Source of the DNA: an uncultured Eubacteriales bacterium
GTDB taxonomy: Bacteria; Bacillota; Clostridia; Oscillospirales; CAG-382
DNA: 64,000 nucleotides
Direction of reading: 5' to 3'
Assembly: GCA_934446095.1 (NCBI GenBank)
Contig: CAKSDR010000001.1
Location: 4,893-68,892 of the forward strand
Positions 22,850-40,512 of this stretch are shown here, one piece after another (positions within the stretch are counted from its first letter, which is position 1; every line of letters starts with the position of its first letter). The notes beneath the pieces are model-generated. The model was not told the origin of the DNA, searched no databases, and worked only from the letters and a program-made list of their open reading frames with translations. Both the position numbers and the translations under genes were made by a program.

Positions 22850-22868
22850 ACCGGGAAAACGCAGTTTT

Positions 22869-22900
22869 GCAGGACGCCTTCGGCGTCCTGCGTTTTATTC
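22869..22900 (+). terminator. Intrinsic terminator or attenuator immediately upstream of the ABC-F gene
   Basis: Perfect 10-bp GC-rich stem gcaggacgcc-ttcg-ggcgtcctgc followed by gttttattctt. Confidence 0.75.
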
Positions 22901-22926
22901 TTAAGCATCTACAGGGAGAGTTTTGT

Positions 22927-24849
22927 GTGATAATACTGAGTCTTGATAATATAAATATTTCTTTCGGAGAAAAAAATATTCTTCGGAACATATCTTTTGG
23001 GCTTAATGAAGGGGATAAACTCGGGATTGTGGGTGTAAACGGCGCCGGAAAAAGCCTGCTTCTGAAAACCATTACGGGAAAAATTTCTCCCGAGTCCGGC
23101 GGAGTTTATATATCCCGCGACAAAAAGATTTCATATCTCGAGCAAAACGATTATTTTGATCCCGAAAAAACAATTTTTGATGAAATGCTTCCGGCCTTTT
23201 CAGAACTTTGCGCGCTTGAAGAAAAACTTGCGCAGCTTTATGAAAAAATGAATGATAAAAATGATTCAAACAATCATATGGCCCTTGCAAAAGAATATAC
23301 TTTAAGTGAGGAAAAATTCCGAACATGCGGAGGATATGAATATAAAAACCGCATAAAAAGCATGCTGTGCTCGCTCGGGTTTGACGAGGAAAGGCAAAAA
23401 TCTAAAACAAGCACGCTTTCGGGCGGGCAGAAAACAAGGCTCTGCCTTGCAAGAACGCTGCTTTGCGAAAGCGATATTCTGATTCTCGACGAGCCGACAA
23501 ACCATCTTGATATAAAAACGGTAGTGTGGCTTGAGGAGTTCTTGTCTTCATACAAAAAGACGCTGCTTGTTGTTTCGCATGACAGATACTTTCTTGACAA
23601 AGTGACAAATAAAACTTTTGAAATTGAAAACGGCGAGGGTAAAATGTATAATGTCCCTTATACAAAATTCGTCGAACAAAAGCAAAAGAATCTTGAAACC
23701 GATATTAAGCATTATGAAATGCAGAAACGCGAAATTGAAAGAATGGAAGCGTTTATAGAAAACCAGAGAAGGTGGAACAGGCAAAGAAATATAATTGCTG
23801 CCGAAAGCCGCATGAAAGCCATTGAAAGAATGGACAAACTTGAAAGGCCAAAGAATGCTCCTGGCAAAATTTCGATGAAATTTTCATCCGGAGAACATAA
23901 ACTTTTGTCTGATAATATTCTTGAGGCGAGAGAACTTACAAAGGGATTTTCCGGGAAAACTCTTTTTTCGGGAGTGTCATTCGTGCTTCACAGCAGAGAA
24001 AGAATGTTTATATTCGGTCAGAACGGAGTCGGAAAATCAACGCTGTTAAAAATTCTCAGCGGGAAAATCACAGAATACGGCGGCAGTTTTGAATATATAA
24101 ACAAGATAAAAATAGGTTATTACGACCAGGAACACCAAGGACTTAATCCCGGCAACACAGTACTTGAAGAGTTGTGGGACGATTTTCCGGATAAAAATCA
24201 GAACGAAATAAGAAGCATTCTTGCAAGATTTCTGTTTACGGCGGATGATGTTGAGAAAAAAGTTTCGAGCCTGTCGGGAGGCGAAAAAGCAAGGCTTACA
24301 TTCGCAAAAATGATGCTTGAAAAACTCAACCTTCTGATACTTGACGAGCCCACAAATCACCTTGACGCGCAAAGCAGAGAGGTGCTGGAAGACGCGCTTT
24401 CGGAATATGACGGAACTATACTTGCAGTGTCGCACGACAGATATTTTATAAAAAAACTTGCGACAAGAATTATGGAACTGTATCCCGGAGGTTATTTCGA
24501 CTACACGGGAGGATATGAGGATTTTTGCGAATATGTTAAAAATCATCCTCGTGACGCGAAAACCGGAGAGCGCGGAGAAGACAGCAAAAAGGATAATAAA
24601 AGTGAGTATATTAAGGGCAAAGAGGAAAAAAGCATAAAAAGAAAGAATCAAAAACAACTTTCCGATACTGAAAATGAAATTCTGAAAATTGAAGAAAGAC
24701 TTTCTGAAATAGAGAAACTTATGCAGGAAAACGCATCTGATTATATTGCCGCGGCAAAATTTTATGAGGAAACCGAAAAGTTAAACTTAAAACTCGAGGA
24801 ACTTTACGAAAAACTGGAAAAACTCACGGAAGCCTGCGGACTTTCCTGA
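22927..24849 (+). CDS. ABC-F family ATPase (two NBDs, no TMD; ribosome-associated type)
   Basis: Two Walker A motifs (GVNGAGKS, GQNGVGKS), two signatures (LSGGQK, LSGGEK), an inter-domain linker and a C-terminal coiled coil. GTG start at 22927 after AGGGAGAG gives a typical MIILSLDNINISFG N-terminus. Confidence 0.9.
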   Translation: MIILSLDNINISFGEKNILRNISFGLNEGDKLGIVGVNGAGKSLLLKTITGKISPESGGVYISRDKKISYLEQNDYFDPEKTIFDEMLPAFSELCALEEKLAQLYEKMNDKNDSNNHMALAKEYTLSEEKFRTCGGYEYKNRIKSMLCSLGFDEERQKSKTSTLSGGQKTRLCLARTLLCESDILILDEPTNHLDIKTVVWLEEFLSSYKKTLLVVSHDRYFLDKVTNKTFEIENGEGKMYNVPYTKFVEQKQKNLETDIKHYEMQKREIERMEAFIENQRRWNRQRNIIAAESRMKAIERMDKLERPKNAPGKISMKFSSGEHKLLSDNILEARELTKGFSGKTLFSGVSFVLHSRERMFIFGQNGVGKSTLLKILSGKITEYGGSFEYINKIKIGYYDQEHQGLNPGNTVLEELWDDFPDKNQNEIRSILARFLFTADDVEKKVSSLSGGEKARLTFAKMMLEKLNLLILDEPTNHLDAQSREVLEDALSEYDGTILAVSHDRYFIKKLATRIMELYPGGYFDYTGGYEDFCEYVKNHPRDAKTGERGEDSKKDNKSEYIKGKEEKSIKRKNQKQLSDTENEILKIEERLSEIEKLMQENASDYIAAAKFYEETEKLNLKLEELYEKLEKLTEACGLS

Positions 24850-24923: not shown

Positions 24924-25271
24924 TACAGTGTAGAAAATAACGGCATATTTTTGTAAATTTTCAACAAAACATTTGTTGCGATTTTTAAGTTAAAATATGA
25001 ATATGAGTTCAAAAAGTAAATTTAACGGCAATTATTTATTTAAAAAACTTATATGATAAAATTATATATAACAAAAATAAAAACGCGAAAACCCTATAAT
25101 TATAATGCACAAAATATTTAATAAAATTAATTATATATAACTATAATTATTAAATTTGTGAATTTTTTAATTTAATATAAATTTTTTATACAAACTTTTC
25201 CACATTTTTTGCAAGCGTTTTTGTGCCATTTTATAAAGTTGACTAAATAAAGGACCCGGTAATTGTCATAC

Positions 25272-25300
25272 TTGACAAAAAAGGCATATTATGCTATTCT
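25272..25300 (+). promoter_or_regulatory. Candidate sigma-A promoter of the 25.6-37.7 kb operon
   Basis: TTGACA, 17-nt spacer, TATTCT, with TG at the extended -10 position. Sits at the end of a very AT-rich tract. Confidence 0.4.
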
Positions 25301-25575: not shown

Positions 25576-28500
25576 ATGAACAAAAATGTAAAATTTTTCG
25601 GCAAGTTTATATGCGCAACTCTCGCTGCATCAACGATCTTTTCTTCCGCAGCGTTTGTATCTGCGGCAAAAGGTTCGTCCGAGCCTACATATAATTCGCT
25701 TGCGCAGACTGCCGAACTGCTTACATCCACAACATATGACGAATATCTTATAAGATACTCCAAGACCGATATGGCAAACGAAACCGTAGTTGTTGACGCT
25801 GTGGATTTCGACCGCAAAAGCACGACTTCCGACGTTCTTGTGCTTGATGATAAAGATGGCATCTTGGGCGGGAATTTTGAGAAAGTGTTGTACACTCCCG
25901 ATACCGGTAAGACAGGGTTTAAGGTAAATATTCCCAAGACCGGACTTTACAATATCGAAATTTCATATTTCCCGTTTTCAAAAGTATATTACGACGACGA
26001 GAACAAAATAGTTGCGACCGAGCAGTCAAATCCTAAAAATCTGAATACCGGCGATTACAACTGCCTTTCCGGAAACACTTCTGCTATCGAACGCGTTTTT
26101 GCGATAGATTCCGAAGTTCCCTTCTCCGAGGCGAGAAACATTTCTTTCCCGAGAATATGGAAGAACAACTATATAAATCCCGGACACAGGGAATTCAAAC
26201 TTGACATAAACGGCAATGAGATCCGTCCTAAAATGTATGAGGCGCCGGAATGGAGAAGCGTTACACTGAAAGACTCCAACGCCTTTTACGACGATTCGTT
26301 TGTTTTCTATTTTGAACAGGGCGAGCATACGATACAGTTTGATTCTTCGCGTGAACCTGTTATTTTGGGAGAAATAAAGTTATATACCGAAGAAAAATTA
26401 AAGACATATGAAGAAGTGAAAAGCGAATACGAAAAGAACGGATATAAATCCGCATCTTCCGACGCTTCGATAAAACTTCAGGCCGAAACGCCGAAATACA
26501 CTTCCGAGCAGGTTATCTATCCCGTAAACGACAGAACATCCGCTGTTACCGAACCCCAGGAGGGCGCAGTTTCGCTTCTCAATACGATAGGCGGAGAAAA
26601 GTGGGAAATTGCGGGTCAGCAGGTAGCGTATGAATTTACCTGTAAGGAATCGGGACTGTATTATATAATTCCGCGTTCAAAGCAGTCGGTATACTCCGGC
26701 ATATTTTCATCAAGATCGCTGAAAATTAACGGGGAATATCCGTTCAGCGACGCAAAACACCTTCAGTTCAACTATTCCGACAACTGGAAAACAGATCCGT
26801 TAAATGACGGAAAGACAGAATTTGTATTCTATTTTGAAGAAGGAAAAACATACGAGATTTGTTTTGAAGTAGTTCTCGGAAATCTTACCGAGGATTTAAG
26901 AAAAGTTAACCAGAGTCTTGAAAAAATGAATGAGTATTACAGAAAAATACTTATGATAACAGGACCCAATCCGGATAAATATACTGATTACGACTTTGCA
27001 AAACTTATTCCCGAAGTTTTGAAAGGAATGAGAACAGAAGCCGAAAATCTCTATAGCATATCTGCGGAACTTGAGCAGATTATGGGACAGAAGGGCGAAC
27101 ACTCTGTTCTTCTTGATAAAATAGCATATATTCTTGATCTTATGGGAAATAACCAGACGAAAATACCCGATAACTTATCTGTACTCAAGACATATATTGG
27201 TTCTCTCGGTACATGGCTTCTTCAGTCTAAAAACCAGCCTTTGCAGGTTGACTATATTCTTATACAGGGTATAGATGAGGAACTTCCCAAACCCGAGGCA
27301 AGTTTTTGGCAGTCATTGAAATTTGAGGTAAGTTCGTTTATAAAATCGTTCTTTACTGATTATAACTCGCTCGGCTCGACTGCCGAATCCAAAGGCAGCG
27401 ATCAGTCGATTGAAGTATGGGTAACGACAGGACGCGACCAGGCTCAGATTTTGCGCGAAATGGTAGATGATTTTACTCAGAGTTCAGGAATTTCGGTAAA
27501 TATTAAACTTGTTGCGACAGGAACTCTTCTGCCCGCAACGCTTGCCGGCGTGGGGCCGGACGTTGCGGACGATGCGGATCCTACGAGTTACGGCGTAAGA
27601 ACTGCGGTTAAAAACCTTAACGAGAAAGATCCCGAAACAGGGGAATATGTGTTCTCCGGCATGGATGAAGTGAAGACGTGGTTCAGCGATGCCGCATGGA
27701 GAGCCGTTACGGTATATAATCCCGACGCTACCGACGCAATTAACGAAGAGGCGATTTACGGTGTTCCCGTAACGCAGTCATTCCCGATACTTTTCTACCG
27801 CAAGGATATTTTCACGGATCTCGGACTTCAGGTTCCGGAAACGTGGGATGATGTATACGGAATTATAAGAACATTGTCCGACAACAATATGTCAATGGGT
27901 CTTTTGAGCGATTCGAACATGCTTCTTACATTCATGTATCAGAAAAACGAACCGCTGTATGCGGGTGATACGCCAGAAACTCTCGGTATGAGAACAAACC
28001 TTGATTCAAATATTGCACTTGACGCATTCCAGACGATGTGCGAGTTCTTCACAATGTACAGCCAGCCCGTAAAATTTGACTTCCCGAACCGTTTCAGGAC
28101 AGGAGAAATGCCGATAGGCATTGCCGATTACAGCACTATTTATAATCAGCTTGAGTGCTTTGCCCCTGAAATCAAAGGTCTTTGGGAATTTGTAAGAATT
28201 CCCGGCACGCTTCAGGAAGACGGAACTGTAAATCATGCAATTCCCACTACCATCACAGCTTCAATGATTATGCATAATTCCAAAAATCCTCAGGCTGCAT
28301 GGGAGTACATAAAATGGTGGACGAGTGTTTCCGCACAGGAAAGATTCGGAAAAGAACAGGTTGCCGTTATGGGATCTGCCGCAAAATATAATACGGCGAA
28401 TATTGAGGCGCTTAAGGCTCAGCCGTGGTCATCTCAGGAAGTTAAAAATCTTTCCCAGCAATTCGAGTCCCTCGAGGGAACGCCTATGACGCCGGGTAAC

Positions 28501-28686
28501 TATATAATTGCAAGATATGAAAACTTCGCTTTCCTTGACGCATACGATAACGGAAAGTCTCCTTCCGATGCTCTGCTTTATTATATAGACGAAATAAACA
28601 GTGAGATAACAAGAAAACGTGACGAATATGATTTTCTTACCTATGAGAAATATCTTGAAAGAAAAGATAGTTCCGGGTCTAACTAA
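25576..28686 (+). CDS. Giant (1036 aa) extracellular solute-binding protein: signal peptide, duplicated beta-sandwich-like modules, helical linker, family-1 SBP domain
   Basis: Start set to ATG 25576, which follows AGGAGG. The signal peptide ends ..AFVSA|AKG. The C-terminal ~430 aa (SIEVWVTTGRDQAQILREMVDDF..) resembles sugar SBPs. Permease genes follow it. Confidence 0.8.
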   Translation: MNKNVKFFGKFICATLAASTIFSSAAFVSAAKGSSEPTYNSLAQTAELLTSTTYDEYLIRYSKTDMANETVVVDAVDFDRKSTTSDVLVLDDKDGILGGNFEKVLYTPDTGKTGFKVNIPKTGLYNIEISYFPFSKVYYDDENKIVATEQSNPKNLNTGDYNCLSGNTSAIERVFAIDSEVPFSEARNISFPRIWKNNYINPGHREFKLDINGNEIRPKMYEAPEWRSVTLKDSNAFYDDSFVFYFEQGEHTIQFDSSREPVILGEIKLYTEEKLKTYEEVKSEYEKNGYKSASSDASIKLQAETPKYTSEQVIYPVNDRTSAVTEPQEGAVSLLNTIGGEKWEIAGQQVAYEFTCKESGLYYIIPRSKQSVYSGIFSSRSLKINGEYPFSDAKHLQFNYSDNWKTDPLNDGKTEFVFYFEEGKTYEICFEVVLGNLTEDLRKVNQSLEKMNEYYRKILMITGPNPDKYTDYDFAKLIPEVLKGMRTEAENLYSISAELEQIMGQKGEHSVLLDKIAYILDLMGNNQTKIPDNLSVLKTYIGSLGTWLLQSKNQPLQVDYILIQGIDEELPKPEASFWQSLKFEVSSFIKSFFTDYNSLGSTAESKGSDQSIEVWVTTGRDQAQILREMVDDFTQSSGISVNIKLVATGTLLPATLAGVGPDVADDADPTSYGVRTAVKNLNEKDPETGEYVFSGMDEVKTWFSDAAWRAVTVYNPDATDAINEEAIYGVPVTQSFPILFYRKDIFTDLGLQVPETWDDVYGIIRTLSDNNMSMGLLSDSNMLLTFMYQKNEPLYAGDTPETLGMRTNLDSNIALDAFQTMCEFFTMYSQPVKFDFPNRFRTGEMPIGIADYSTIYNQLECFAPEIKGLWEFVRIPGTLQEDGTVNHAIPTTITASMIMHNSKNPQAAWEYIKWWTSVSAQERFGKEQVAVMGSAAKYNTANIEALKAQPWSSQEVKNLSQQFESLEGTPMTPGNYIIARYENFAFLDAYDNGKSPSDALLYYIDEINSEITRKRDEYDFLTYEKYLERKDSSGSN

Positions 28687-28728
28687 ATCTTCGTTTACAA
28701 CAGAAATTCACATTAAGGAGTGAAACAA

Positions 28729-29694
28729 ATGTCTGAAAAGACAATAGAGCAGAACAATCCTGCGGCAAAAAGACCTACTCTGCGTAAAGATATGACAAAG
28801 TGGGAATGGACAAAAAAAGAAATGAAAGTAAACCGTGTGGGTTATTATATGGTTGCTCCGTTCTTTCTTATATTCCTTACATTTACGATAGCGCCGGTTG
28901 TTTTATCGCTTATACTGAGTTTTACGTCGTTCAACATGCTTGAATGGCCTAAATTCCTATTTCTTGATAATTACATAAGATTATTTCTTGAGGACGATAT
29001 ATTTCTCCTTGCTGTAAAAAATACTCTTATTTTTGCAATAATGACAGGTCCTGCATCATATTTCTTATGTCTTATATTTGCGTGGTTTATAAATGAACTT
29101 ACCCCTAAAATCAGGGCTATAGTAACACTTATATTCTATGCGCCGAGTATTTCCGGACAGATATATATAGTTTGGACGGTTATGTTTTCTTCGGACCAGT
29201 ACGGTTACGCAAACGGTATTCTTATGAAACTCGGAATTATAAATTCACCGATACTTTGGTTCCAGGACACAAATTACATAATGCCTCTTGTTATACTCGT
29301 AGCATTATGGACATCTCTCGGAACATCTTTCCTTTCGTTTATAGCCGGATTTCAGGTTGTTGACAAAAGTCTTTACGAGGCTGCGGCTGTTGACGGCATA
29401 AAGAACAGATGGCAGGAGCTGTGGTTTGTAACATTGCCCGCAATGAAGAACCAGATGGTTTTCGCGGCAATTATGTCTATAACACAATCATTCGGTTTCG
29501 GCGGAGTTGTAACTACGCTTTGCGGATTCCCGTCTCCGAATTACTGCGCATGGACAATCATGCATCACCTTGAAGATTACGGCGGACAGCGCTGGGAAGT
29601 CGGATACGCGTCGGCTATTGCAACGGTACTGTTTGCGATCATGATAGGTTCGAACTTGTTGGTTAACAGAATGCTGTCGAAAGTAGGTAAGTAA
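28729..29694 (+). CDS. Carbohydrate ABC transporter permease, MalF/UgpA-like (pair 1)
   Basis: Six TM segments and EAA loop YEAAAVDGIKNRWQELWFVTLPAM. ATG 28729 lies 8 nt after AAGGAG. Confidence 0.9.
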   Translation: MSEKTIEQNNPAAKRPTLRKDMTKWEWTKKEMKVNRVGYYMVAPFFLIFLTFTIAPVVLSLILSFTSFNMLEWPKFLFLDNYIRLFLEDDIFLLAVKNTLIFAIMTGPASYFLCLIFAWFINELTPKIRAIVTLIFYAPSISGQIYIVWTVMFSSDQYGYANGILMKLGIINSPILWFQDTNYIMPLVILVALWTSLGTSFLSFIAGFQVVDKSLYEAAAVDGIKNRWQELWFVTLPAMKNQMVFAAIMSITQSFGFGGVVTTLCGFPSPNYCAWTIMHHLEDYGGQRWEVGYASAIATVLFAIMIGSNLLVNRMLSKVGK

Positions 29695-29695
29695 G

Positions 29696-30577
29696 ATGGA
29701 TAAAAAGAAAAAATTTAAGATTCAGATAAAGTCCCATCGTCTTAACCGTTCCGTCGGCGGCGATATCGGAATAGATATAATGCTGATAATTTTCGGCGCA
29801 TTTATGTTTCTGCCTATGCTTTATGCAATCTGTCAGGCACTGAAACCTCTTGATGAATTGTGGATGTTCCCTCCGAGATTTTTTGTTCAGAACCCGACGT
29901 TTAAAAACTTTTCAGACCTGTTCAAACTTATGAGCAGTTCGTGGGTTCCGTTTTCAAGATATATTTTCAATACCGCGTTTGTTTCATTTGCAGGCACTTT
30001 CGGGCATTTGTTTATCGCGTCGATGGCAGCATATGCCCTTACGAAAATAAAATTTCCGGGAAGAAATTTTATTTTCCAATTGATATATCTTTCCCTTATG
30101 TTTAACTCGACTGTAACAAGTATAACAAACTATATTACAATGTCGGCTCTCGGCTGGATAGATACATACTGGGCACTTATAGTTCCGGCTTTCGGTTCGA
30201 CGCTCGGACTTTACCTTATGCGTCAGTTTATGGATTCTTCGGTGCCTGATCAGGTAATAGAATCCGCAAGACTTGACGGAGCAAGCGAACTTAATATTTA
30301 CTGGAATATTGTAATGCCTATGGTAAAACCCGCGTGGCTTACACTTATAGTATATTGTTTCCAGGGACTTTGGAACAGCGGCTCTTCAATATTTATATAC
30401 AGTGAGCAGCTTAAAACATTTAACTACGCGATAACGCAGATATTGTCCGGCGGTATCGTAAGAAGCGGCGCCGCATCAGCTTCGGCTGTTGTAATGATGA
30501 TTGTGCCGATCGCGGTATTCGTTGTAACACAGAGTAATATTATAGAAACAATGGCAAGTTCCGGAATGAAGGATTAA
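29696..30577 (+). CDS. Carbohydrate ABC transporter permease, MalG/UgpE-like (pair 1)
   Basis: EAA loop IESARLDGASELNIYWNIVMPMVKP. Separated from the previous gene by a 1-nt gap. Confidence 0.9.
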   Translation: MDKKKKFKIQIKSHRLNRSVGGDIGIDIMLIIFGAFMFLPMLYAICQALKPLDELWMFPPRFFVQNPTFKNFSDLFKLMSSSWVPFSRYIFNTAFVSFAGTFGHLFIASMAAYALTKIKFPGRNFIFQLIYLSLMFNSTVTSITNYITMSALGWIDTYWALIVPAFGSTLGLYLMRQFMDSSVPDQVIESARLDGASELNIYWNIVMPMVKPAWLTLIVYCFQGLWNSGSSIFIYSEQLKTFNYAITQILSGGIVRSGAASASAVVMMIVPIAVFVVTQSNIIETMASSGMKD

Positions 30578-30588
30578 GGAGGATAAAA

Positions 30589-32778
30589 ATGAAACATTTA
30601 AAAAGAATACTGGTCCTTCAGGTGCTTTTGCTTGTTGTCGTTTCAATGGTACCGGTTTCGGCTATAACGCCATATTCAACGTATACCTATGACATTGACG
30701 GAGAATATATGGAATCTCCGCATGCATTTGTGCCGTACAAAATAGTTGACTACAAGTCAATGGGTCTTGACACCGAACTTTTAGATCCTGAAGACGTTCA
30801 TGTCCGCAAAATAACGGATGATTCCGGAAATGTTACGGATTATCAGATTTTTATATCAGATACCGGAAACAAACGGGTAGTTGTAACAGATTCGGATTTT
30901 AAAACCATAGCGATTATAGACAGTTTTATAAATGAATGGGGCGTACCGGATTCAATTAACGACCCGAGAGGAATTTATGTTGCATACGGAAAACTTTATA
31001 TATGCGACTGCAATTCCAACAGAATTCTTGTGTTTAATGCCGAGGCTTCAGAAGACGGAACGTATTCATTTGACTTTATAAAAACACTCGAAGAACCTAA
31101 AGGGGATGTTTTTTCCGAAAGTACGGTTTATAAACCGGTTGCGGTTGCTGTTGATAATTCGGGAAGAATATATGTAGTTTCGTCGACTTGTTATCAGGGA
31201 ATTATTTCAATGACAACAGACGGCGTGTTTACTGCATTTTTAGGTCCTCAGGCAAGCGATATATCTTTCTGGGACATGATATGGAGAAATATCCAGACAG
31301 CAGAACAGAGAAGCCAGAAAGAAAAGAATGTGTCTACCGCTTACAACAATATAAATATTGATGACAGTGGATTTATATATGCGACGACATCGTCGCTGTC
31401 AGAGAGCAAACAGCTTGAGGCTATAACTTCAAAGTCTAAGGACAGCACGTACGCTCCTGTCAAGATGCTGAACCCGGGCGGCGAAGACGTAATGAAAAGA
31501 AACGGATTTTATCCGCCTTCCGGCGAAGTCAATGTAAACGAAGAAGAAACCTCTGACGCAAAAATTACGGGAGTTTCAAAGATTATTGACGTTGCTTTGG
31601 GGCCTGACGGCGTATGGAGCATACTCGATTCAAAAAGACAGAAGATATATACATATAACAATAACGGAGAATTATTGTATATATTCGGCGACCAGGGCAA
31701 CCAACTCGGAAATCTGCAGAATGCTTCGGCAATAGATTATCTTGGAACAAGCATAATTGCTCTTGATAAAATCAACAAAAATATTACCGTATACAACAGA
31801 ACCGAATACGGAGATTTGCTTGCGGTAGCGCTCAAGCATCAGAACGAGCGTCAGTATAGCCAGACTGTAGAAGACTGGACCGAAGTGCTTCAGAGAAATT
31901 CAAACTTTGATATGTCGTATGTAAGCATCGGTCAGAGTTATTACAGAGAAGGCAAGTACCGCCAGGCAATGAATATGTATAAATATGCGTATGATGTCAG
32001 CGATTATTCAGATGCTTATAAAGAACTCCGTAAGGAAACGATATCTAAAGTAATAATACTTATTCCGATTGCGGTTATCGTGATCTGCATTTTGCTCTCG
32101 AAATTCCTTTCGTATGCGGCAAAAGTAAATACTGCGGCGCAGTCATCCTCATATAAGCGTAATTTATGGTCCGAATATTGCTACGGATATCACTTAATAT
32201 TCCACCCGTTCGACGGTTTCTGGGATATAAAGCACGAAAAGCGTGCGACCGCAAAGGGCGCAACATTAATACTCGGATTTACCGTGATAGCGTATATATA
32301 CAATTCCATAGGCAAGGGATATATAATAAATCCCACGCCCAAAGGCGCAAGCCTTGTAATGTCGATACTTTCGATACTCATGCCGGTATTTTTGTGGATA
32401 TTGGCAAACTGGTGTCTTACAACGCTGTTTGATGGCGAAGGCACTATGAAAGATATATATATTGCAACCTGCTATTCGTTGTTCCCGCTGCCGCTGTTTA
32501 TGATGGTTGCAACGTTTGCATCGAACTTTATTACAGTAGACGAAGTATCTGTAATAAATATGATTACGGGAATTGCATATTTCTGGGTAGGATTTCTGCT
32601 GTTTTTCGGAATGCTTACGATACATGACTATTCTCTTGGAAAAAATGTTCTTACAAGTCTTGGAACAATAATAGGTATGGCATTTATCATGTTCATAGGA
32701 GTTTTATTCTCAAGCCTTATAGGAAAAATCATATCTTTCGTATATAGCATTATCGTAGAATTTTCATATAGGATATAA
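30589..32778 (+). CDS. Signal peptide + NHL-like beta-propeller + TPR-like segment + C-terminal Yip1-family polytopic membrane domain
   Basis: Signal peptide ..VSA|ITP. NHL-like blades (GIYVAYGKLYICDCNSNRILVFN, PVAVAVDNSGRIYVVSS, ALGPDGVWSILDSKRQKIYTYN, AIDYLGTSIIALDKINKNITVYN). TPR-like GQSYYREGKYRQAMNMYKYAY. Five or six C-terminal TM segments with a Yip1-like HPFDGFWDIK entry motif. Confidence 0.7.
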   Translation: MKHLKRILVLQVLLLVVVSMVPVSAITPYSTYTYDIDGEYMESPHAFVPYKIVDYKSMGLDTELLDPEDVHVRKITDDSGNVTDYQIFISDTGNKRVVVTDSDFKTIAIIDSFINEWGVPDSINDPRGIYVAYGKLYICDCNSNRILVFNAEASEDGTYSFDFIKTLEEPKGDVFSESTVYKPVAVAVDNSGRIYVVSSTCYQGIISMTTDGVFTAFLGPQASDISFWDMIWRNIQTAEQRSQKEKNVSTAYNNINIDDSGFIYATTSSLSESKQLEAITSKSKDSTYAPVKMLNPGGEDVMKRNGFYPPSGEVNVNEEETSDAKITGVSKIIDVALGPDGVWSILDSKRQKIYTYNNNGELLYIFGDQGNQLGNLQNASAIDYLGTSIIALDKINKNITVYNRTEYGDLLAVALKHQNERQYSQTVEDWTEVLQRNSNFDMSYVSIGQSYYREGKYRQAMNMYKYAYDVSDYSDAYKELRKETISKVIILIPIAVIVICILLSKFLSYAAKVNTAAQSSSYKRNLWSEYCYGYHLIFHPFDGFWDIKHEKRATAKGATLILGFTVIAYIYNSIGKGYIINPTPKGASLVMSILSILMPVFLWILANWCLTTLFDGEGTMKDIYIATCYSLFPLPLFMMVATFASNFITVDEVSVINMITGIAYFWVGFLLFFGMLTIHDYSLGKNVLTSLGTIIGMAFIMFIGVLFSSLIGKIISFVYSIIVEFSYRI

Positions 32779-32801: not shown

Positions 32802-35681
32802 ATGAAAAAAATAATATCTGTAATTCTTTCAATCTTTATGCTTGCGTGCACCCTTTCTTCTTTTACATTCGTTCACGCCGAAGGACCTGAGTTTTTGTGC
32901 AAGTCCGGAGGTGCCGATGTATTTGTAGATAAAAGCACGGGAGATGTTCAGTTTTATCTGAACGGCAAACTGCTTTTTTCCGAAGACGTGCCCGACGGTA
33001 CAAAAATTACCGATACCGTTGCTGTTGAAGATTATACTTCAAAAGTTTTTAAAAGCCCGCAGGAAAAAGTTGCAACTACAATGAATTACTTTTATGACAA
33101 CGGCGAATATGCGATATTTGCCGACAAGGATTCCGGAGAAGTTGCAATGATGACAAAAAGCACGGGACAAATACTTCTTACGAACCCTTATGACGTAGGC
33201 GCGACCACATCTGACACAAAAATCAAGAATCAATTGCTTTCGCAGGTAATTCTGACTTATCAGAAACGCGGAAATGAAAATACATATTCGAGTTTTGGCG
33301 AAGGCGCGCTTAATAATCAGGTAAAAATTAAAAAAATCCGTTCCGGTGTTAGGGTTGAATATACAATAGGACGTTCGGAAATCCGCACTCTTGTTCCGGA
33401 ACTTATCGAAAAGGGAGCTTTTGAAGAAAAGATTCTTTCAAAGGTTACAATCGAAAACGCAGTATCGGGAAAAACCGAGGCTGCTGTAAAAAAAGATTAC
33501 AGCAAACTCACGGCGTTCTATAACCTTAAAGACCCGAATGCTAAAGGTCTTTCGGATACCGCCAAGAAAAATATGAAACTTACATATCCGATAACTCAGA
33601 AGTATGCCGTGTACATGCTCGATGCCGGTACTTCCGCAAGACAGAAGTACGAAATAGAAAGCATAATTAAAGAATATACCGATTACTCGTTTGAGGACAT
33701 GGAAAGCGATTATGCGACTGTTGAATATGAGGGTACAGAGGCTTCTCCCCCACTGTTCAAAATTGCAATAGAATATTATGCGGACGAATACGGATTTAAG
33801 GTAAGAGTTCCGTCTAAGAGCATAAGATATGATTCCGCCGAATATACGGTTTCAAATATGATTATTCTTCCTTATCTCGGCGCAGGCTCAAATGATGAAT
33901 CCGGATATACTTTCATTCCTGATGGCTCCGGCGTTATTACTTATTTCAAGGACGCTGTCGAAAAGCCTATCGTAATTACCGGCAAAATGTACGGGATGGA
34001 TTATTCATATCATAAAACAAGCGGCCAGAATCAGGAAGTAATGAGATTACCCGCATTTGGTGTTGCAAGAGATTCTTCGTATATGCTCGTTACAAAGAAG
34101 ACTGCAAAAACAAATGTCGATCAGGCTTCCGCAAACCAAACCTCGGATTTTGACTATTCCGGTGTTAATGTCAGCGAAAAGACCGCATATCTCGGATATG
34201 TTGAGGAAGGCGAATCTCTTATTGACATATCAACGGCTCATGGCGGAACTGTAAGCCATAAGTACAATTCAGCGTATACAAAAATATATCCGATATTGAA
34301 GGATACGTATAAATTGTCGGGCGTAAATGCTGAAATGACGGTCGATTCAAACAGAAAATATACCGGAAACTATACATACAGAATTTTCCCGCTTTCTGAT
34401 GAAAAGGCAAATTATATAGGCATGGCGGAAGTTTTGAGAGATTACCTCGAGAAAACAGGAGTTATTTCAAAACTCGATAAAGAAAACGGAAACAGCGATA
34501 TACCCCTGTATCTTGAAAACTTCGGTTCGCTCACCACAAGTCAAAAAATAATGGGATTTCCTGTCAGCGAACAAACTCCTCTTACAACTTTTGAACAGAG
34601 CAAAACCATGATCTCTGAACTCAAAGAAGCGGGCGTTGAAAATATCAATCTGAAACTTACCGGTTGGTATAACGGCGGTCTTAGCCATACGGTGCCGAGT
34701 AAACTTAAAGTTGAAAAGGCTCTCGGCGGTGAAAAAGATCTTTTGGACCTTATAAAATATGCCTCCGAAAACAAAATCGGAATCTATCCCGACTTGGAAT
34801 TTACGTTTGTAAGCAAAACCGAAATGTTTGACGGTTATAACTACAAGAAGGATGCTGTGAAAACTATCGATAAGCGTTCTGCCGTAATTCAGGAATACAG
34901 CCCGCTGTATCAGGAATTTGAAGACGGAAGATATCAGATACTTTCTCCGAACGCAATCTCAAAGTTCTACGAAAAATCTTCCGAAAAATATTTGAAGTAT
35001 AATGCCGGAGGAATTTCCGTCGCAAGTCTTGGCTCATATCTGAATTCCGATCAGAATGAAGACTATCCTTATACAAGAGAAGAAGCAAAATCCGAGATTT
35101 CCAATATTTTGTCAAAAATGAAGGAAGATAACGGAAGTGTGCTTGTAGACGGAGGAAATTCATATACGCTGAAATATGCCGACCATATTCTAAATATGCC
35201 TGTCGACAGCAGCCGTAACGTTTATACGAGCGAGGCAATCCCATTTATCGGAATGGTGCTTCACGGATATAAGGAATACACGGGAACTGCCATGAACCTT
35301 GACGGTGACTATAAATATTCTATACTGAAAGCCGTTGAAAACGGTGCATCTCCGTACTTCATACTTTCTTATACATCAGATGAATTTGACAATACTTCGG
35401 AACTTAAAAACTATCCGGAGTTTAGAAAATATTATTCTATCAAATATAATATTTGGAAAAATGACCTTGTGGAAACGTATAACACTTTGAATGATGCTCT
35501 TTCCAATGTAAAATATTCCACAATTTCATCTCACGAATATATAGATGAAAGAGTTGTAAAAGTAACATATTCTAACGGTGTATCGTTTATTCTGAATTAT
35601 AACGATGAACCGTATGAATATAACGGAACAACAATAGAAAAATTAAGTTTTATAAATGAGAAAGGAGAAGACCATGAATAA
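32802..35681 (+). CDS. Large secreted protein, DUF5696-like (possible glycoside-hydrolase-like TIM barrel)
   Basis: Start set to ATG 32802, with a signal peptide (..FTFVHA|EGP). The DUF5696 assignment is from memory of annotated Clostridia/Paenibacillus neighbourhoods. LKLTGWYNGGL...GIYPDLEFTF resembles barrel strands. Confidence 0.6.
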   Translation: MKKIISVILSIFMLACTLSSFTFVHAEGPEFLCKSGGADVFVDKSTGDVQFYLNGKLLFSEDVPDGTKITDTVAVEDYTSKVFKSPQEKVATTMNYFYDNGEYAIFADKDSGEVAMMTKSTGQILLTNPYDVGATTSDTKIKNQLLSQVILTYQKRGNENTYSSFGEGALNNQVKIKKIRSGVRVEYTIGRSEIRTLVPELIEKGAFEEKILSKVTIENAVSGKTEAAVKKDYSKLTAFYNLKDPNAKGLSDTAKKNMKLTYPITQKYAVYMLDAGTSARQKYEIESIIKEYTDYSFEDMESDYATVEYEGTEASPPLFKIAIEYYADEYGFKVRVPSKSIRYDSAEYTVSNMIILPYLGAGSNDESGYTFIPDGSGVITYFKDAVEKPIVITGKMYGMDYSYHKTSGQNQEVMRLPAFGVARDSSYMLVTKKTAKTNVDQASANQTSDFDYSGVNVSEKTAYLGYVEEGESLIDISTAHGGTVSHKYNSAYTKIYPILKDTYKLSGVNAEMTVDSNRKYTGNYTYRIFPLSDEKANYIGMAEVLRDYLEKTGVISKLDKENGNSDIPLYLENFGSLTTSQKIMGFPVSEQTPLTTFEQSKTMISELKEAGVENINLKLTGWYNGGLSHTVPSKLKVEKALGGEKDLLDLIKYASENKIGIYPDLEFTFVSKTEMFDGYNYKKDAVKTIDKRSAVIQEYSPLYQEFEDGRYQILSPNAISKFYEKSSEKYLKYNAGGISVASLGSYLNSDQNEDYPYTREEAKSEISNILSKMKEDNGSVLVDGGNSYTLKYADHILNMPVDSSRNVYTSEAIPFIGMVLHGYKEYTGTAMNLDGDYKYSILKAVENGASPYFILSYTSDEFDNTSELKNYPEFRKYYSIKYNIWKNDLVETYNTLNDALSNVKYSTISSHEYIDERVVKVTYSNGVSFILNYNDEPYEYNGTTIEKLSFINEKGEDHE

Positions 35682-36642
35682 AGCGGTATCTGCCCCAAAC
35701 CAGGGTACAAAAAAGAAAAAAAAGCCCGCATCGCTTGACGCAAAAAAGGCAAGGGCCGGAATATGGTTTGTTCTTCCTTTCCTTATAGGTCTTGTTTGTA
35801 TATATCTTCCTATGATATACGATTCTATAAAACTCAGTTTTCATAGAATTCATATAGTAAGGGGCGGAGGGTTTGTCCTTGAATATGTAGGCTGGCAAAA
35901 TTACAGCGACGCCCTTTTTTCGGATGCAAACTATGTTCAGGTGCTTGTTGAAAGCGTAAAACAATTGGTACTCGATATACCTGCAATAGTTCTGTTTTCA
36001 CTCTTTATGGCAATAATACTTAACCAGAAGATGATAGGCCGTGCAGTGTTCCGTGCAATATTCTTCATACCTGTAATAATTTCAACCGGCATTATAGACT
36101 CTCTTGACCAGAGCAACGCGATATCGAATTATATGAGTTCCGACTCTATAGATACGGGTAACATAAACGGTTCTTCAGCAACAGAGATTGTTTCAAGCAT
36201 GGATATTACAAACCTGCTTGGAAATATGGCGGTCGGAACGGAACTTGTGCAATATGTCGTTAATATTGTAAATAATATATTCAATATTGTAAACCGTTCC
36301 GGCGTACAGATGCTGATTTTCCTTGCGGGACTTCAGTCGATTTCTCCGTCGATTTATGAATCGTGCACCATGGAGGGAGCAACTCCTTGGGAAACTTTCT
36401 GGAAGATAACATTCCCGATGATAAGTCCTATGATACTTGTAAACTCTATATATACGGTCATAGATTCATTTACATCGGAATCGAATAAGGTTATGTCATA
36501 TATAACGGAAGTATACAGAGGCGAGGACGGAAACGTGCTTAGCGCCGCCATGTCGTGGATGTACTTTTTAATAGTAATGCTGATAATTCTTCTGGTAGCG
36601 GCAATACTTTCTTCATATGTATTCTACCAGAGAAGAGATTGA
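35674..36642 (+). CDS. Carbohydrate ABC transporter permease, MalF-like (pair 2)
   Basis: EAA loop YESCTMEGATPWETFWKITFPMISP. ATG 35674 follows AAAGGAG and overlaps the previous gene by 8 nt. Confidence 0.9.
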   Translation: MNKAVSAPNQGTKKKKKPASLDAKKARAGIWFVLPFLIGLVCIYLPMIYDSIKLSFHRIHIVRGGGFVLEYVGWQNYSDALFSDANYVQVLVESVKQLVLDIPAIVLFSLFMAIILNQKMIGRAVFRAIFFIPVIISTGIIDSLDQSNAISNYMSSDSIDTGNINGSSATEIVSSMDITNLLGNMAVGTELVQYVVNIVNNIFNIVNRSGVQMLIFLAGLQSISPSIYESCTMEGATPWETFWKITFPMISPMILVNSIYTVIDSFTSESNKVMSYITEVYRGEDGNVLSAAMSWMYFLIVMLIILLVAAILSSYVFYQRRD

Positions 36643-36654
36643 TGAAGGGAGGAA

Positions 36655-37704
36655 ATGAAAATGACTGATAACGGCACACAGAAGAAACTTTATGTATATA
36701 ATGCCGACCAGAATAAAGAATATAAAAAAGTTTCATGGTTTGAAAAGTTAAAATTAAAAGTATTTTCAGTGAACTTCCTTGTGAAAGTATTGTGGGCAAT
36801 ATTCAGATTTGTATTGCTTATAGGCATCTCTTTTATTATAATATATCCCTTTTTCACAAAAATCACATCATCTTTTATGAGTCCTGACGATTTTCTTGAC
36901 AGCACCGTAAAAATGATACCGAAGTATCCAACGCTTGATCAGTATAAGTATATAATAATCGAAAACAAATATTTTAAAGCTCTGTTTAATACGGCGCTGA
37001 TATCAGGGCTTTCCGCAGTCCTGCAGACAATAGTCTGCGCACTTGTCGGATATGGCCTTGCAAAATTTAAATTTAAAGGAAGAGGTCTTGTATTTGCATT
37101 TGTTGTACTTACAATGATAGTTCCGAACAAAACGCTTATGCTGTCCATGTTTATGAAATTTAAATATTTCGATGTGTTTGGCATTTATAAGGGTCTTAAT
37201 GCGATCTTCCATTATTCGACGAAGGCAACTCCGTCTATTGACCTTATAAATACGTTTTGGCCGATGCTTATACTTTCGGCAACCGCAATAGGTTTTAAGA
37301 ACGGACTTTACATATTTATATTCAGGCAGTTCTATAAAGGCGTGCCTGACGAACTGGAAGAGGCGGCTTATGTTGACGGTTCCGGCACTTTCGGGACATA
37401 TTTTAAAATCATATTGCCTCTTACAATTCCGATGATGGTAACGGTATTTATGTTCTCGTTCTCGTGGGGGTGGACGGATACATTCTATTCATCTATTTTC
37501 TACACCTCAACAGGACCTTTAATGCTGGCAAATATAATAAAAGTCCCGGCAAGTCTTAATATTATGTTTGCGGCAAGCGCCCTTTACAACTCGGCAGTTA
37601 CGAATACGTGCGCACTCCTTGTTATTCTGCCGTTGTTTATAATATTCCTGTTTGCACAGAAATCACTTGTACAGGGAATTGAACGTTCCGGTATCGTTGG
37701 TTAA
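36655..37704 (+). CDS. Carbohydrate ABC transporter permease, MalG-like with N-terminal extension (pair 2)
   Basis: EAA loop EEAAYVDGSGTFGTYFKIILPLTIP and six TM segments. Confidence 0.9.
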   Translation: MKMTDNGTQKKLYVYNADQNKEYKKVSWFEKLKLKVFSVNFLVKVLWAIFRFVLLIGISFIIIYPFFTKITSSFMSPDDFLDSTVKMIPKYPTLDQYKYIIIENKYFKALFNTALISGLSAVLQTIVCALVGYGLAKFKFKGRGLVFAFVVLTMIVPNKTLMLSMFMKFKYFDVFGIYKGLNAIFHYSTKATPSIDLINTFWPMLILSATAIGFKNGLYIFIFRQFYKGVPDELEEAAYVDGSGTFGTYFKIILPLTIPMMVTVFMFSFSWGWTDTFYSSIFYTSTGPLMLANIIKVPASLNIMFAASALYNSAVTNTCALLVILPLFIIFLFAQKSLVQGIERSGIVG

Positions 37705-37716
37705 AAAATATATAAG

Positions 37717-37749
37717 GAAAATTTCCGGCATATGCCGGAAATTTTTTTG
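37717..37749 (+). terminator. Intrinsic terminator ending the seven-gene operon
   Basis: Stem aaatttccggca-ta-tgccggaaattt followed by a T-run. Confidence 0.8.
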
Positions 37750-37812: not shown

Positions 37813-37851
37813 GAACACTTGTTTGACATTGCAAAAATTATATGCTATAAT
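37813..37851 (+). promoter_or_regulatory. lexA promoter with overlapping SOS (Cheo-type) box
   Basis: GAACACTTGTTT (GAAC-N4-GTTT) at 37813-37824 overlaps a perfect TTGACA (37823-37828), 17-nt spacer, TATAAT (37846-37851). Confidence 0.7.
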
Positions 37852-38789: not shown

Positions 38790-39779
38790 ATGATAGAAGT
38801 AGAGCATATAGTAAAAAAGTATGCTTCGGTTGTTGCGATTGATGATATTTCGTTTAAGGTTGAAACGGGCGAAATAGTAGGATTCCTAGGACCAAACGGC
38901 GCCGGCAAGAGCACTATGATGAATATTATTACGGGATATCTTTCTGCAACATCGGGAAATGTAAGGGTAGACGGTATAGATATTCTTGAAAATCCTATAG
39001 AAGCAAAAAAGAAAATAGGATTTTTGCCGGAAATTCCGCCGCTGTACCTCGATATGACAGTCAAAGAATATCTGAATTTTGTATACGAACTTAAACAGTG
39101 TAAACTGTCAAGACAGGAACACATAGATGAAATTTGCAGAGTCGTAAAAATAGAAGACGTGTATAACCGCGTTATAAAGCACCTTTCAAAAGGTTACCGT
39201 CAGCGTGTCGGCATAGCTCAGGCGCTTGTCGGAAATCCGCCTGTTATAATATTTGATGAACCCACAGTAGGTCTTGACCCTGTGCAGATAATTGAGATAA
39301 GAAATCTTATAAAAACGCTGGGGAAAAAGCACACCGTAATACTCAGCACTCATATATTATCCGAGGTGCAGTCTGTATGCGACAGGGTAATCGTAATAAA
39401 TAAGGGCAAACTTGCGGCAGATGAAAAAACCGTTGAACTTCAAAAAGACAGCGACAGCACAATAAAATATTCCGCAAAAATCTGCGGTCCGCGGACACTT
39501 GTGCTGAAGGCGATAAGAGGTCTTGACGGCGTTATAAAAGCAGGATGCGCAGGCGCGGGAGAAGAAAATAGCCTTATATATATCTTTGAGGCAGAATCCT
39601 GTGCAGAAATAAGAAAACCGCTGTTTTCCATACTTTCGGAACATGGCTGGCCTCTTGTCGGGCTTGAAAAGGCTGACGCAAGCCTTGAGGATGCTTTTAT
39701 GAGAATCGTATCTGACGCCGATGACGGCGCGGAAGAGGAAAATTCACAGACCGGCAAAAACGACGTGCAGGAGGGATAA
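38790..39779 (+). CDS. ABC-2-type transporter ATP-binding protein (GldA-like)
   Basis: Walker A GPNGAGKST, signature LSKGYRQR, Walker B IIFDEP and a C-terminal extension. Confidence 0.9.
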   Translation: MIEVEHIVKKYASVVAIDDISFKVETGEIVGFLGPNGAGKSTMMNIITGYLSATSGNVRVDGIDILENPIEAKKKIGFLPEIPPLYLDMTVKEYLNFVYELKQCKLSRQEHIDEICRVVKIEDVYNRVIKHLSKGYRQRVGIAQALVGNPPVIIFDEPTVGLDPVQIIEIRNLIKTLGKKHTVILSTHILSEVQSVCDRVIVINKGKLAADEKTVELQKDSDSTIKYSAKICGPRTLVLKAIRGLDGVIKAGCAGAGEENSLIYIFEAESCAEIRKPLFSILSEHGWPLVGLEKADASLEDAFMRIVSDADDGAEEENSQTGKNDVQEG

Positions 39780-39781
39780 AA

Positions 39782-40495
39782 ATGATTGCAATATACAAAA
39801 GGGAAATGAAGGCATATTTCGCCTCTGCCATAGGATATATTTTTTCGGCGGTATTTTTCGCTCTTTCAGGCTTGATTTTCTCGCTTACAACTTTGTTTAT
39901 GCGCACATCAGAGCCTTCAAATTATTTTGTAATTATGATGTTTTTATTCATAATACTGATTCCGATACTTACAATGAAACTTTTTTCCGAAGAAAGAAAA
40001 CTGAAGACGGAACAAATTCTGCTTACCTCGCCCGTAAGTCTATTCGGAATGGTTTTTGCAAAATTTGCAGCGGCATTTACGATGTTTGCGGGGACATTTA
40101 TCGCCTCTTGTCTTGTAAACTTTGTAACGCTTGCGGCGATTTCTAAAAAGAGTTTGAATATAGGCAGCATTGCGGGCAGCGTTATAGGCATTTTGTTTAT
40201 AGGCGGAGTATTTATTTCAATAGGAATACTTTTGTCGTCGCTTACCGAAAATCAGTTGATTGCGGCAGTTTCAACGATCGGAACAATAATATTTATGCTT
40301 TCCCTGCAGTTTATAACTTCTATATTTGACTCACCGGCGGTAAGAAACGTTATAAAATGGTTCTCCGTAATAGACAGATTTACCTATTTTACAAACGGAA
40401 TATTTTCTGTATCGGCAATTATATTTTTTATAAGCCTTATTATAATTTTTCTTTTTCTCACAATACGAGTATTTGAAAAACGCCGTTGGGAGTAA
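39782..40495 (+). CDS. ABC-2 family permease (GldF-like)
   Basis: 237 aa with six TM segments. Its N-terminus MIAIYKREMKAYFASAIGYIF is typical of ABC-2/GldF permeases. Confidence 0.75.
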   Translation: MIAIYKREMKAYFASAIGYIFSAVFFALSGLIFSLTTLFMRTSEPSNYFVIMMFLFIILIPILTMKLFSEERKLKTEQILLTSPVSLFGMVFAKFAAAFTMFAGTFIASCLVNFVTLAAISKKSLNIGSIAGSVIGILFIGGVFISIGILLSSLTENQLIAAVSTIGTIIFMLSLQFITSIFDSPAVRNVIKWFSVIDRFTYFTNGIFSVSAIIFFISLIIIFLFLTIRVFEKRRWE

Positions 40496-40512
40496 AGGGG
40501 AAGGAAAGCAGT

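Follow-up and report, generated by a model that had tools for sequence, protein, structure and literature searches.

A 64,000-nucleotide stretch of DNA from an uncultured Eubacteriales bacterium (contig CAKSDR010000001.1, positions 4,893 to 68,892 of the forward strand; hereafter the window) encodes a protein in which an extracytoplasmic NHL beta-propeller is fused to a membrane domain of the Yip1 family. The gene lies within a seven-gene operon that encodes, in this order, a giant solute-binding protein (SBP), two ATP-binding cassette (ABC) importer permeases (A1 and A2), the NHL-Yip1 protein, a DUF5696 protein and two further permeases (B1 and B2), and it is an obligate, co-inherited component of this cassette. 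What we propose for it, at somewhat less than an even chance of being right, is that NHL and Yip1 form a dedicated membrane hub or scaffold which docks the SBP and/or the DUF5696 protein, whose predicted fold is GH129-like, over the two translocators. Coordinates of all features are collected in Table 1.

A preliminary description of the gene, made from its DNA sequence and translation, had read it as a signal peptide followed by an NHL-like propeller, TPR-like helices, a transmembrane (TM) helix and a Yip1-like domain. This is borne out by Pfam, profile searches, an AlphaFold2 model and hydropathy: the open reading frame (ORF) encodes a signal peptide, a six-bladed NHL propeller, about 2.5 TPR-like repeats, a TM helix, a cytoplasmic segment and a Yip1 domain with five TM helices. 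A homologue search with the protein returned an identical protein and 2083 relatives at E ≤0.001; the best 120 homologues are 714–774 residues long, share 49–67% identity over 97–100% of the query, and all contain PF04893. The target is therefore a real conserved gene and not a chance ORF. In the databases its family carries the names ‘YIP1 family protein’, ‘TPR repeat protein’ or ‘hypothetical’.

The AlphaFold2 model (mean pLDDT, the predicted local distance difference test score, 82) starts with a signal-peptide helix (aa 2–19), which is followed by six four-stranded blades (aa 30–405), five helices (aa 406–488) continuing into a long TM helix (491–517), two short helices (526–549) and the TM helices of the Yip1 part (555–575, 589–614, 620–647, 650–679 and 683–728). 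Hydropathy and charge fit this layout, with the ectodomain outside behind the signal peptide, TM1 leading to a K/R-rich segment inside, and the Yip1 bundle ending with the C-terminus outside. Only hydropathy, charge and conserved AxA motifs underlie the assignment of signal-peptide cleavage and topology; the orientation was deduced from the signal peptide together with the ectodomain and TM1, and from the K/R-rich stretch at 504–554.

Within the ectodomain, Pfam NHL (PF01436) matches aa 124–149 at 32.3 bits, above the gathering score of 20. When the ectodomain is searched in isolation two NHL stretches are found, the remaining blades being too diverged for the Pfam model. A family profile (profile A1) built from 45 orthologues of the target matches NHL propellers of the PDB (TRIM71, Thin, Brat, PknD and NHLRC2) over aa 82–228 and 331–403. 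Foldseek on the AlphaFold2 model, a check that the preliminary description had suggested, places six-bladed NHL domains (Thin, TRIM71, Lin41, Brat) first among PDB structures, at E-values of 1e-12 to 1e-10 and with target-normalised TM-scores of about 0.70–0.77. The ‘at least four’ blades counted earlier are thus six, and aa 30–405 adopt, in the model and by its Foldseek matches, a six-bladed propeller fold. Invariant polar residues are numerous in the propeller and in a conserved loop (aa 295–330). For the helices that follow, Pfam TPR_1 scores 17.8–19.3 bits, under its cut-off of 27.8, and the family profile matches consensus TPR proteins at 1.4e-8 to 2.5e-9 over aa 417–480. Judged from profile and model, aa 406–488 are best called TPR-like, with about 2.5 repeats; what had been described as a TPR-like helix pair keeps its character and comprises five helices. 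The TM segment quoted in the preliminary description corresponds to aa 487–506. Some fused homologues carry large inserts in or before the propeller (P0246, 998 aa; P0257, 912 aa; P0268, 883 aa), P0246 having about 250 extra residues after the N-terminal strand.

Pfam Yip1 (PF04893) matches aa 535–702 at 54.9 bits against a gathering score of 28.6 and covers positions 2–169 of the 173 in its hidden Markov model; the C-terminal fragment alone still scores 54.4 bits. AlphaFold2 helices and hydropathy agree on a five-TM bundle (555–728) after a cytoplasmic N-terminal segment, as had been expected of the region behind the TM segment. The family profile, run against solved structures, gave no match in the Yip1 part. 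The most conserved region of the whole target is the predicted cytoplasmic segment aa 518–554 (mean top-residue frequency 0.77), and the top-conserved residues, HPFDGFWDxKHEKR (539–552), NWCLTTLFDGEG (607–618) and HDY..KN (679–686), all lie at the predicted cytoplasmic face. The predicted cytoplasmic motifs HPFDGFWDxKHEKR, NWCxTTLxDGEG and HDY are shared with stand-alone Yip1 proteins, which are described below.

Homologues were scanned with one genome per species. At least 586 species genomes encode a confirmed relative of the target, and the best 80 of these relatives all come from metagenome-assembled genomes of Oscillospiraceae, Eubacteriales or Clostridia. Gene order was surveyed by tblastn of the window proteins against these 80 loci and six metagenome contigs. 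Throughout the 86 loci a single order occurs, namely SBP, A1, A2, NHL-Yip1, DUF5696, B1, B2; the cassette is complete in 67 and cut by contig ends, with no deviation, in the other 19, and the target stands between A2 and DUF5696 in every one. In the window all cassette genes lie on the + strand between 25576 and 37704 with successive gaps of 33, 1, 11, 23, −26 (or −8) and 12 nt, the 11 and 23 nt on the two sides of the target being those given in the preliminary description. Over the loci, median gaps are 12 nt upstream and 21 nt downstream of the target, and the intergenic medians of the cassette range from 1 to 42 nt. The flanks differ (ABC-F and lexA in the window, ribosomal genes in locus L004, VanY and SpoVA in locus L087), and with the order constant the seven genes therefore travel as a unit.

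The two halves of the target also occur as separate genes. An exhaustive HMMER search with aa 505–729 returned 1637 clusters at E ≤0.001 and 239 at ≤1e-30. Among the best 150 clusters, 95 are proteins of at least 630 aa with the match at their C-terminus, and 11 are complete proteins of about 210 aa that start with the conserved motif of target aa 518–554. A search seeded with one stand-alone Yip1 protein gave 1561 relatives with a median length of 207 aa; they occur in Lachnospiraceae and Clostridiaceae and, in two copies, in the cultured Anaerotaenia torta. We looked up six split-type contexts (loci L088–L093), and in all six a gene for an NHL protein of about 500 aa lies directly upstream of the stand-alone Yip1 gene. 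The two genes overlap or abut in five of the six loci; the NHL call of L091 ends one base before the Yip1 start. The split cassette runs SBP (about 965 aa), two permeases, NHL, Yip1, DUF5696, two permeases. In A. torta (L088) the NHL protein aligns to target aa 5–513 (31% identity, 9e-71), spanning signal peptide, propeller, TPR and TM1, and the Yip1 protein aligns to aa 532–728 (40% identity, 2e-46). Since colinear split partners stand elsewhere in an equal cassette, the window ORF is a fusion of the two, its joint lying in the poorly conserved cytoplasmic linker. This split and fused pairing offers the strongest evidence that propeller and Yip1 act together.

Invariant position in 86 of 86 loci, mobility as a unit and the split partners strongly uphold the earlier view of the protein as a dedicated component of a transporter locus rather than an independent gene. 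The survey of distribution and genomic partners that had been suggested for this question gave one cassette order, and the two outcomes named beforehand as fatal to the preliminary description, a lack of NHL or Yip1 similarity and homologues scattered over unrelated contexts, did not arise.

An ordinary second SBP follows B2 directly in five of the six split cassettes. The window has none, and a weak SBP-like match lies just downstream in only two of the 86 fused-type loci searched. The second SBP of L088 is fused to two F5/8-type-C domains.

Of the partners of the target, the four permeases all match BPD_transp_1, A1 below the cut-off (23.6 against 26.4) and the other three above it, and their NCBIfam relatives are UgpA/E, MalF/G and GlcT/U. 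An EAA-type loop is kept in all four, and both pairs therefore look like competent transmembrane domains (TMDs) of a type-I importer. The giant SBP has its family-1 domain (SBP_bac_1, SBP_bac_8) confined to the C-terminal 420 residues or so; the N-terminal part of about 570 residues consists of CBM35/CBM6/Golvesin_C-like beta-sandwiches and a helical segment. In 30 orthologues CBM_35 was matched in six and Golvesin_C in ten, and there are CBM_6 matches too. The closest relative in the PDB is Lin1841 (6.8e-24). TMDs with EAA loops and a family-1 SBP are thus present, whereas no cis-encoded nucleotide-binding subunit was found: neither the window cassette nor any annotated cassette locus contains a transporter ATPase gene. 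CUT1 systems that share an MsmK/MsmX-type ATPase usually have no cis-encoded ATPase. An EttA/ribosomal-protection-like ABC-F gene (22867–24849, +) lies upstream of the cassette, as it does in about a dozen related loci; as a candidate for the missing transporter ATPase it was rejected, being an EttA-like translation factor.

With two TMD pairs, an SBP bearing carbohydrate-binding modules (CBMs) and an enzyme-like protein, the cassette is not a simple importer operon. The preliminary description, which spoke of an ABC importer operon and of linkage to permeases on both sides, was right about importer permeases and about the upstream neighbour, A2; the operon has, however, a second TMD pair, the CBMs and the enzyme-like protein and lacks an ATPase gene, and the downstream neighbour, starting at ATG 32802, is the DUF5696/GH129-like gene and not a permease.

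For the DUF5696 protein an AlphaFold2 model was obtained with a pLDDT of 87. Foldseek finds ZgGH129 (1.6e-27) and NagBb (2e-22) with this model, followed by structures of glycoside hydrolase (GH) families GH101, GH31 and GH36. Target-normalised TM-scores against the GH129 structures are 0.68–0.74, and the model has a GH129-type fold with a central (beta/alpha)8 barrel. Sequence comparison gives three weak colinear matches to ZgGH129, and matches to GH129 proteins of the PDB cover flanking segments only. Two acidic residues, D677 and E846, are invariant and a third, D750, is present in eight of nine sequences. A literature search on DUF5696, a Pfam family of ‘unknown function’, found no paper. 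The orthologues carry a variable, Ala/Lys/Glu-rich insert, probably a coiled coil, just before the last beta-domain (L042, L061, L040, L076, L046); it measures about 20 aa in the window protein and up to about 1000 aa in others, and total length reaches 1978 aa.

Orthologues of both the giant SBP and the DUF5696 protein have AxA-type signal peptides. Lipobox-like strings occur in 6 of 59 giant SBP orthologues and in 1 of 71 DUF5696 orthologues, and motif heuristics detect neither a later TM or hydrophobic segment nor an LPXTG motif in the two sets. The ordinary second SBPs, in loci having one, carry lipoboxes (LAVSC, FTAC, VAGC).

Split-type cassettes lie in polysaccharide-utilisation neighbourhoods. 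GH5, GH43 and GH106 genes, an AraC regulator and F5/8-type-C proteins surround the cassette of L088, GH43 and a LacI regulator that of L090, GH113, GH5 and GH18 that of L092, and a sulfatase, a pectate-lyase-like protein, CBM4_9 and an AraC-type response regulator that of L093. A known locus resembles them. In Caldicellulosiruptor (Anaerocellum) bescii, the first operon of the xylan degradation locus is xloEFG-X-GH129-axoFGE (Athe_0174-0181; PMC8579813), with a counterpart in C. saccharolyticus (Csac_2419-2412; PMC8579813, PMC12285236). Supplementary tables give Athe_0174-0176 as an SBP and two permeases and Athe_0179-0181 as two permeases and an SBP; Athe_0177, the unnamed X, is annotated as an ‘NHL repeat-containing protein’ and Athe_0178 as a secreted GH129-family protein (PMC8579813). 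All eight genes are induced on xylan and Avicel, the log2 value of Athe_0177 being 3.81 on cellobiose and 8.18 on xylan (log2 fold change 4.4, adjusted P 7e-5), and the shared ATPase gene msmK, encoded elsewhere, is co-induced (PMC8579813). XynR binds an operator upstream of Athe_0174 with a Kd of 161 nM (PMC12285236).

Gene order and annotations of the C. bescii operon equal those of the window cassette, and it too contains no ATPase gene; unlike the window cassette, its locus ends with a second SBP followed by xylanase genes. By annotation and gene order, it looks like the same cassette. Both papers describe two adjacent transporters at the locus and leave X undiscussed (PMC8579813, PMC12285236). 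There was no Caldicellulosiruptor entry among the names of 20 representative clusters, including the 10 most thermophile-like in composition, and a literature search found Athe_0177 and Csac_2416 mentioned in no main text.

In the hub or scaffold that we favour, the ATPase would be supplied in trans, and the Yip1 bundle would sit together with TM1 in the membrane beside the permeases. The TPR stalk and the propeller would form an outward docking platform that keeps the anchorless giant SBP and the DUF5696 protein at the cell surface above both translocators, and glycan capture, trimming and import would be physically coupled. The conserved cytoplasmic face of Yip1 may make a further contact inside, with permease loops or the shared ATPase. 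This role is favoured because both folds of the ectodomain, NHL and TPR, are classical for protein interaction, and because the giant SBP and the DUF5696 protein appear to be without anchors, an unanchored binding protein in a monoderm cell needing a holder. The NHL/Yip1/DUF5696 core is moreover constant while the flanking carbohydrate-active enzymes (CAZymes) change, so that a generic structural role fits better than substrate recognition.

Several points weigh against the hub, whose physical contacts are a proposal. Glycan binding or catalysis could be a function of the propeller itself, and a mere extracellular tether leaves the conserved, predicted cytoplasmic Yip1 face unexplained. The argument from missing anchors is built on motif heuristics; the signal peptides might not be cleaved, or the wall could hold the proteins. 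The homology of Athe_0177 to the target, finally, is drawn from annotation and gene order only.

The conserved cytoplasmic motifs keep alive a coupling or regulatory role toward a trans-encoded ATPase or the permease loops, which we consider an unlikely but serious alternative. The propeller and TPR would then sense the loaded SBP, the glycan or the enzyme, and TM1 and Yip1 would modulate the transporters from inside, for example by recruiting or gating an MsmK-type ATPase or the EAA loops. That the predicted cytoplasmic Yip1 face is the best conserved part and is common to the stand-alone Yip1 partners would be well accounted for, and with no ATPase gene in any cassette the two TMD pairs must compete for one encoded in trans; the architecture also recalls the extracellular NHL sensor of PknD. 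However, the target contains no known signalling or nucleotide-binding domain, its cytoplasmic part amounts to only about 40 residues and short loops, and its contact with an ATPase would be hypothetical.

A tethered substrate receptor appears slightly less probable. Here the NHL propeller would bind an oligosaccharide or a product of the GH129-like protein and deliver it to pair B in place of a second SBP. This would suit the distribution of second SBPs, which follow B2 in most split cassettes, are missing from the window and are faintly matched in only two fused loci, and also the gene order, in which the propeller gene directly precedes the enzyme and the B pair. Split cassettes, however, have the NHL protein and a second SBP together, and NHL is thus not a simple replacement. 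The propeller is not an SBP fold, and it is conserved despite different flanking CAZymes, where a receptor that determines specificity should vary.

We regard it as improbable that the propeller is an extracytoplasmic enzyme of lyase, lactonase or esterase type, working with the GH129-like protein, and Yip1 a mere anchor. Several homologues give weak or faint Pfam SGL (SMP-30/gluconolactonase-like) matches, and the many invariant polar residues of the propeller and of the loop aa 295–330 could be read in this way. Yet the closest structures are NHL domains that bind partners and do not catalyse, neither a catalytic motif nor a metal site was recognised in the propeller, and the conserved cytoplasmic face of Yip1 and the constant pairing with four permeases would be left unexplained. 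That the gene is an unrelated passenger with a function of its own, such as envelope maintenance, is highly improbable: beyond the absence of direct functional data nothing speaks for it, and its position is invariant in 86 of 86 fused and six of six split cassettes, the reading frames overlap or abut in most split cassettes, the gene is retained when the cassette moves to new flanks, and the annotated C. bescii counterpart is co-induced on xylan.

The operon leader contains no riboswitch or other Rfam element, even at E ≤1. ORF starts called mechanically for the SBP (25327) and for the DUF5696 gene (TTG 32781) were rejected; ATG 25576 and ATG 32802 are preferred because ribosome-binding sites (RBSs) are present and public gene calls agree. 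The mechanical start of permease B1 (35656) overshoots the likely start at 35674, which likewise has an RBS and matches public gene calls. Elsewhere in the window lie a thiamine pyrophosphate (TPP) riboswitch (RF00059, 15221–15341, − strand, 59.9 bits, above the gathering score) and, downstream of lexA, a four-gene set (38790–43469, +) unrelated to the cassette, which encodes an ABC ATPase, an ABC-2 membrane protein, a DUF7088 and a DUF4340 protein according to Pfam calls taken from the identical contig L002, and which we take to resemble a GldA/F/G-type ABC system.

Table 1. Features of the cassette, of the NHL-Yip1 protein and of the split-type loci. Positions are those of the window, except for the second SBPs, which are given in their own loci.
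Feature	Position	Strand	Basis and remarks
Promoter-like site some 270 nt before the start of the cassette's first gene (TTGACA, 17 nt, TATTCT, with TG)	25263..25300	+	Consensus scan only
Giant SBP, 1036 aa, type-I signal peptide without lipobox	25576..28686	+	ATG and AGGAGG RBS; SBP_bac_1 1.8e-16
Permease A1 (MalF/UgpA-like TMD), EAA loop EAAAVDG	28720..29694	+	BPD_transp_1, UgpA and GlcT matches; L001 gene call starts 9 nt later
Permease A2 (MalG/UgpE-like TMD), EAA loop ESARLDG	29696..30577	+	1-nt gap after A1
NHL-Yip1 ORF (target), 729 aa	30589..32778	+	ATG start, RBS-like GGAGG upstream
Target aa 1–25, predicted signal peptide (MKHLKRILVLQVLLLVVVSMVPVSA / ITPY)	30589..30663	+	Hydropathy; A25 and P28 invariant; low pLDDT aa 22–27; cleavage inferred
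Target aa 26–405, extracytoplasmic six-bladed NHL beta-propeller	30664..31803	+	Pfam NHL, PDB profile matches, AlphaFold2, Foldseek
Target aa 406–488, five TPR-like helices (about 2.5 repeats) leading into TM helix	31804..32052	+	Profile against consensus TPR proteins; AlphaFold2
Target aa 489–517, TM helix 1, running from outside to inside; anchors the NHL protein at its C-terminus where the genes are split	32053..32139	+	Hydropathy, AlphaFold2
Target aa 518–554, predicted cytoplasmic; poorly conserved linker, then near-invariant HPFDGFWDIKHEKR; fusion joint and Yip1 start	32140..32250	+	Conservation
Target aa 555–729 and stop, five Yip1 TM helices; NWCLTTLFDGEG and HDY..KN at predicted cytoplasmic helix ends	32251..32778	+	PF04893, AlphaFold2, conservation
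DUF5696 protein, 959 aa, predicted secreted (type-I signal peptide, no anchor), GH129-like multidomain fold	32802..35681	+	PF18952 1e-157
Permease B1 (MalF-like, about 150-aa extracytoplasmic loop), EAA-like loop ESCTMEG	35656..36642	+	Start may be ATG 35674
Permease B2 (MalG-like), EAA loop EAAYVDG	36655..37704	+	Permease family matches, EAA motif
Palindromic hairpin AAAATTTCCGGCATATGCCGGAAATTTT, 28-nt perfect palindrome, 14 nt after the last cassette gene, likely terminator	37718..37745		Pattern scan
Perfect sigma-70 consensus promoter (TTGACA, 17 nt, TATAAT, with TG) before lexA	37823..37851	+	Consensus scan
Second SBP of split cassette L088	15255-17573		
Second SBP of split cassette L089	16667-18049		
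Second SBP of split cassette L090	15232-16740		
Second SBP of split cassette L091	15303-16745		
Second SBP of split cassette L093	15174-16553		

Bacterial Yip1 proteins had been called essentially uncharacterised in the preliminary description, which overlooks YknW of Bacillus subtilis. This Yip1-family protein of the YknWXYZ ABC exporter is reported to modulate assembly of the complex (PMC4887032, citing Yamada et al. 2012). Like the target, YknW is a polytopic Yip1-family membrane protein encoded in an ABC-transporter operon. Its partners there are a MacB-type exporter and a membrane fusion protein, whereas those of the target are MalFG-type importer permeases; YknW is not known to have a propeller or TPR ectodomain partner, and the two proteins are known to be related through their shared Pfam family. 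The resemblance is one of principle, not membership. Mycobacterium tuberculosis PknD (PDB 1RWI/1RWL; profile match at E 1.9e-6) likewise has an extracytoplasmic six-bladed NHL propeller and a single TM helix, but continues into a cytoplasmic Ser/Thr kinase domain where the target has a five-TM Yip1 bundle in a transporter operon. Eukaryotic Yip1/Yif1 proteins are Rab-interacting membrane proteins of Golgi and ER (PMC5898192). They share PF04893, the polytopic bundle and the cytoplasmic N-terminal segment with the target; bacteria are without Rab GTPases or vesicle traffic, the partners are entirely different, and the likeness does not go beyond fold and family.

CUT1 importers of Firmicutes share one MsmX/MsmK-type ATPase, and MalFGK2-MalE is the structural paradigm. 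The cassette agrees with them in its MalF/MalG-like TMD pairs with EAA loops, its family-1 SBP and an ATPase encoded elsewhere. It differs in having two TMD pairs per operon, a CBM-bearing SBP of about 1000 aa without a lipid anchor, and three invariant extras, NHL, Yip1 and the GH129-like protein. It is an ABC sugar importer with unrecognised obligatory accessory parts, not a new category. Searches of the literature on Yip1 with ABC, solute-binding or NHL found nothing on the cassette system, and we found no published analysis of the propeller-Yip1 pairing or fusion, of its invariance in a dual-permease GH129-like cassette, or of the large anchorless secreted partners.

The SusCD ‘utilisome’ of Bacteroidota unites a surface enzyme, a glycan-binding protein and a transporter in one machine. 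To this the cassette bears a functional analogy only, since the proteins are unrelated, SusCD works with an outer membrane and a TonB-dependent transporter, and an assembly of the cassette's products would be hypothetical. A wider reading, which we hold to be possible though doubtful, is that the cassette represents an unrecognised class of multi-component ABC importers in monoderm bacteria, a ‘Gram-positive utilisome’. In it the Yip1-fold membrane protein would, with its NHL/TPR partner, arrange two MalFG-type translocators, the anchorless CBM-bearing SBP and the GH129-like protein, catalytic or structural, into a surface super-complex, with the cytoplasmic face of Yip1 coupling to the shared ATPase. 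If true, this would be the first mechanistic role of the prokaryotic Yip1 family in solute import.

Loci of this kind are currently read as ‘two adjacent sugar ABC transporters plus hypothetical proteins’. The invariant extras and the anchorless giant SBP imply an organisation of glycan capture, processing and import that lies outside the textbook SBP-TMD2-NBD2 model (NBD, nucleotide-binding domain). The cassette is present in its fused form in at least 586 species-level genomes, and one split-form Yip1 has more than 1500 relatives. It is carried by Oscillospiraceae and Lachnospiraceae of gut and rumen and, going by annotation, by Caldicellulosiruptor, which degrades biomass. The question can be put to a direct test in C. 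bescii, which is amenable to genetics and whose counterpart operon is induced by xylan, and such work would assign a function to bacterial Yip1 proteins.

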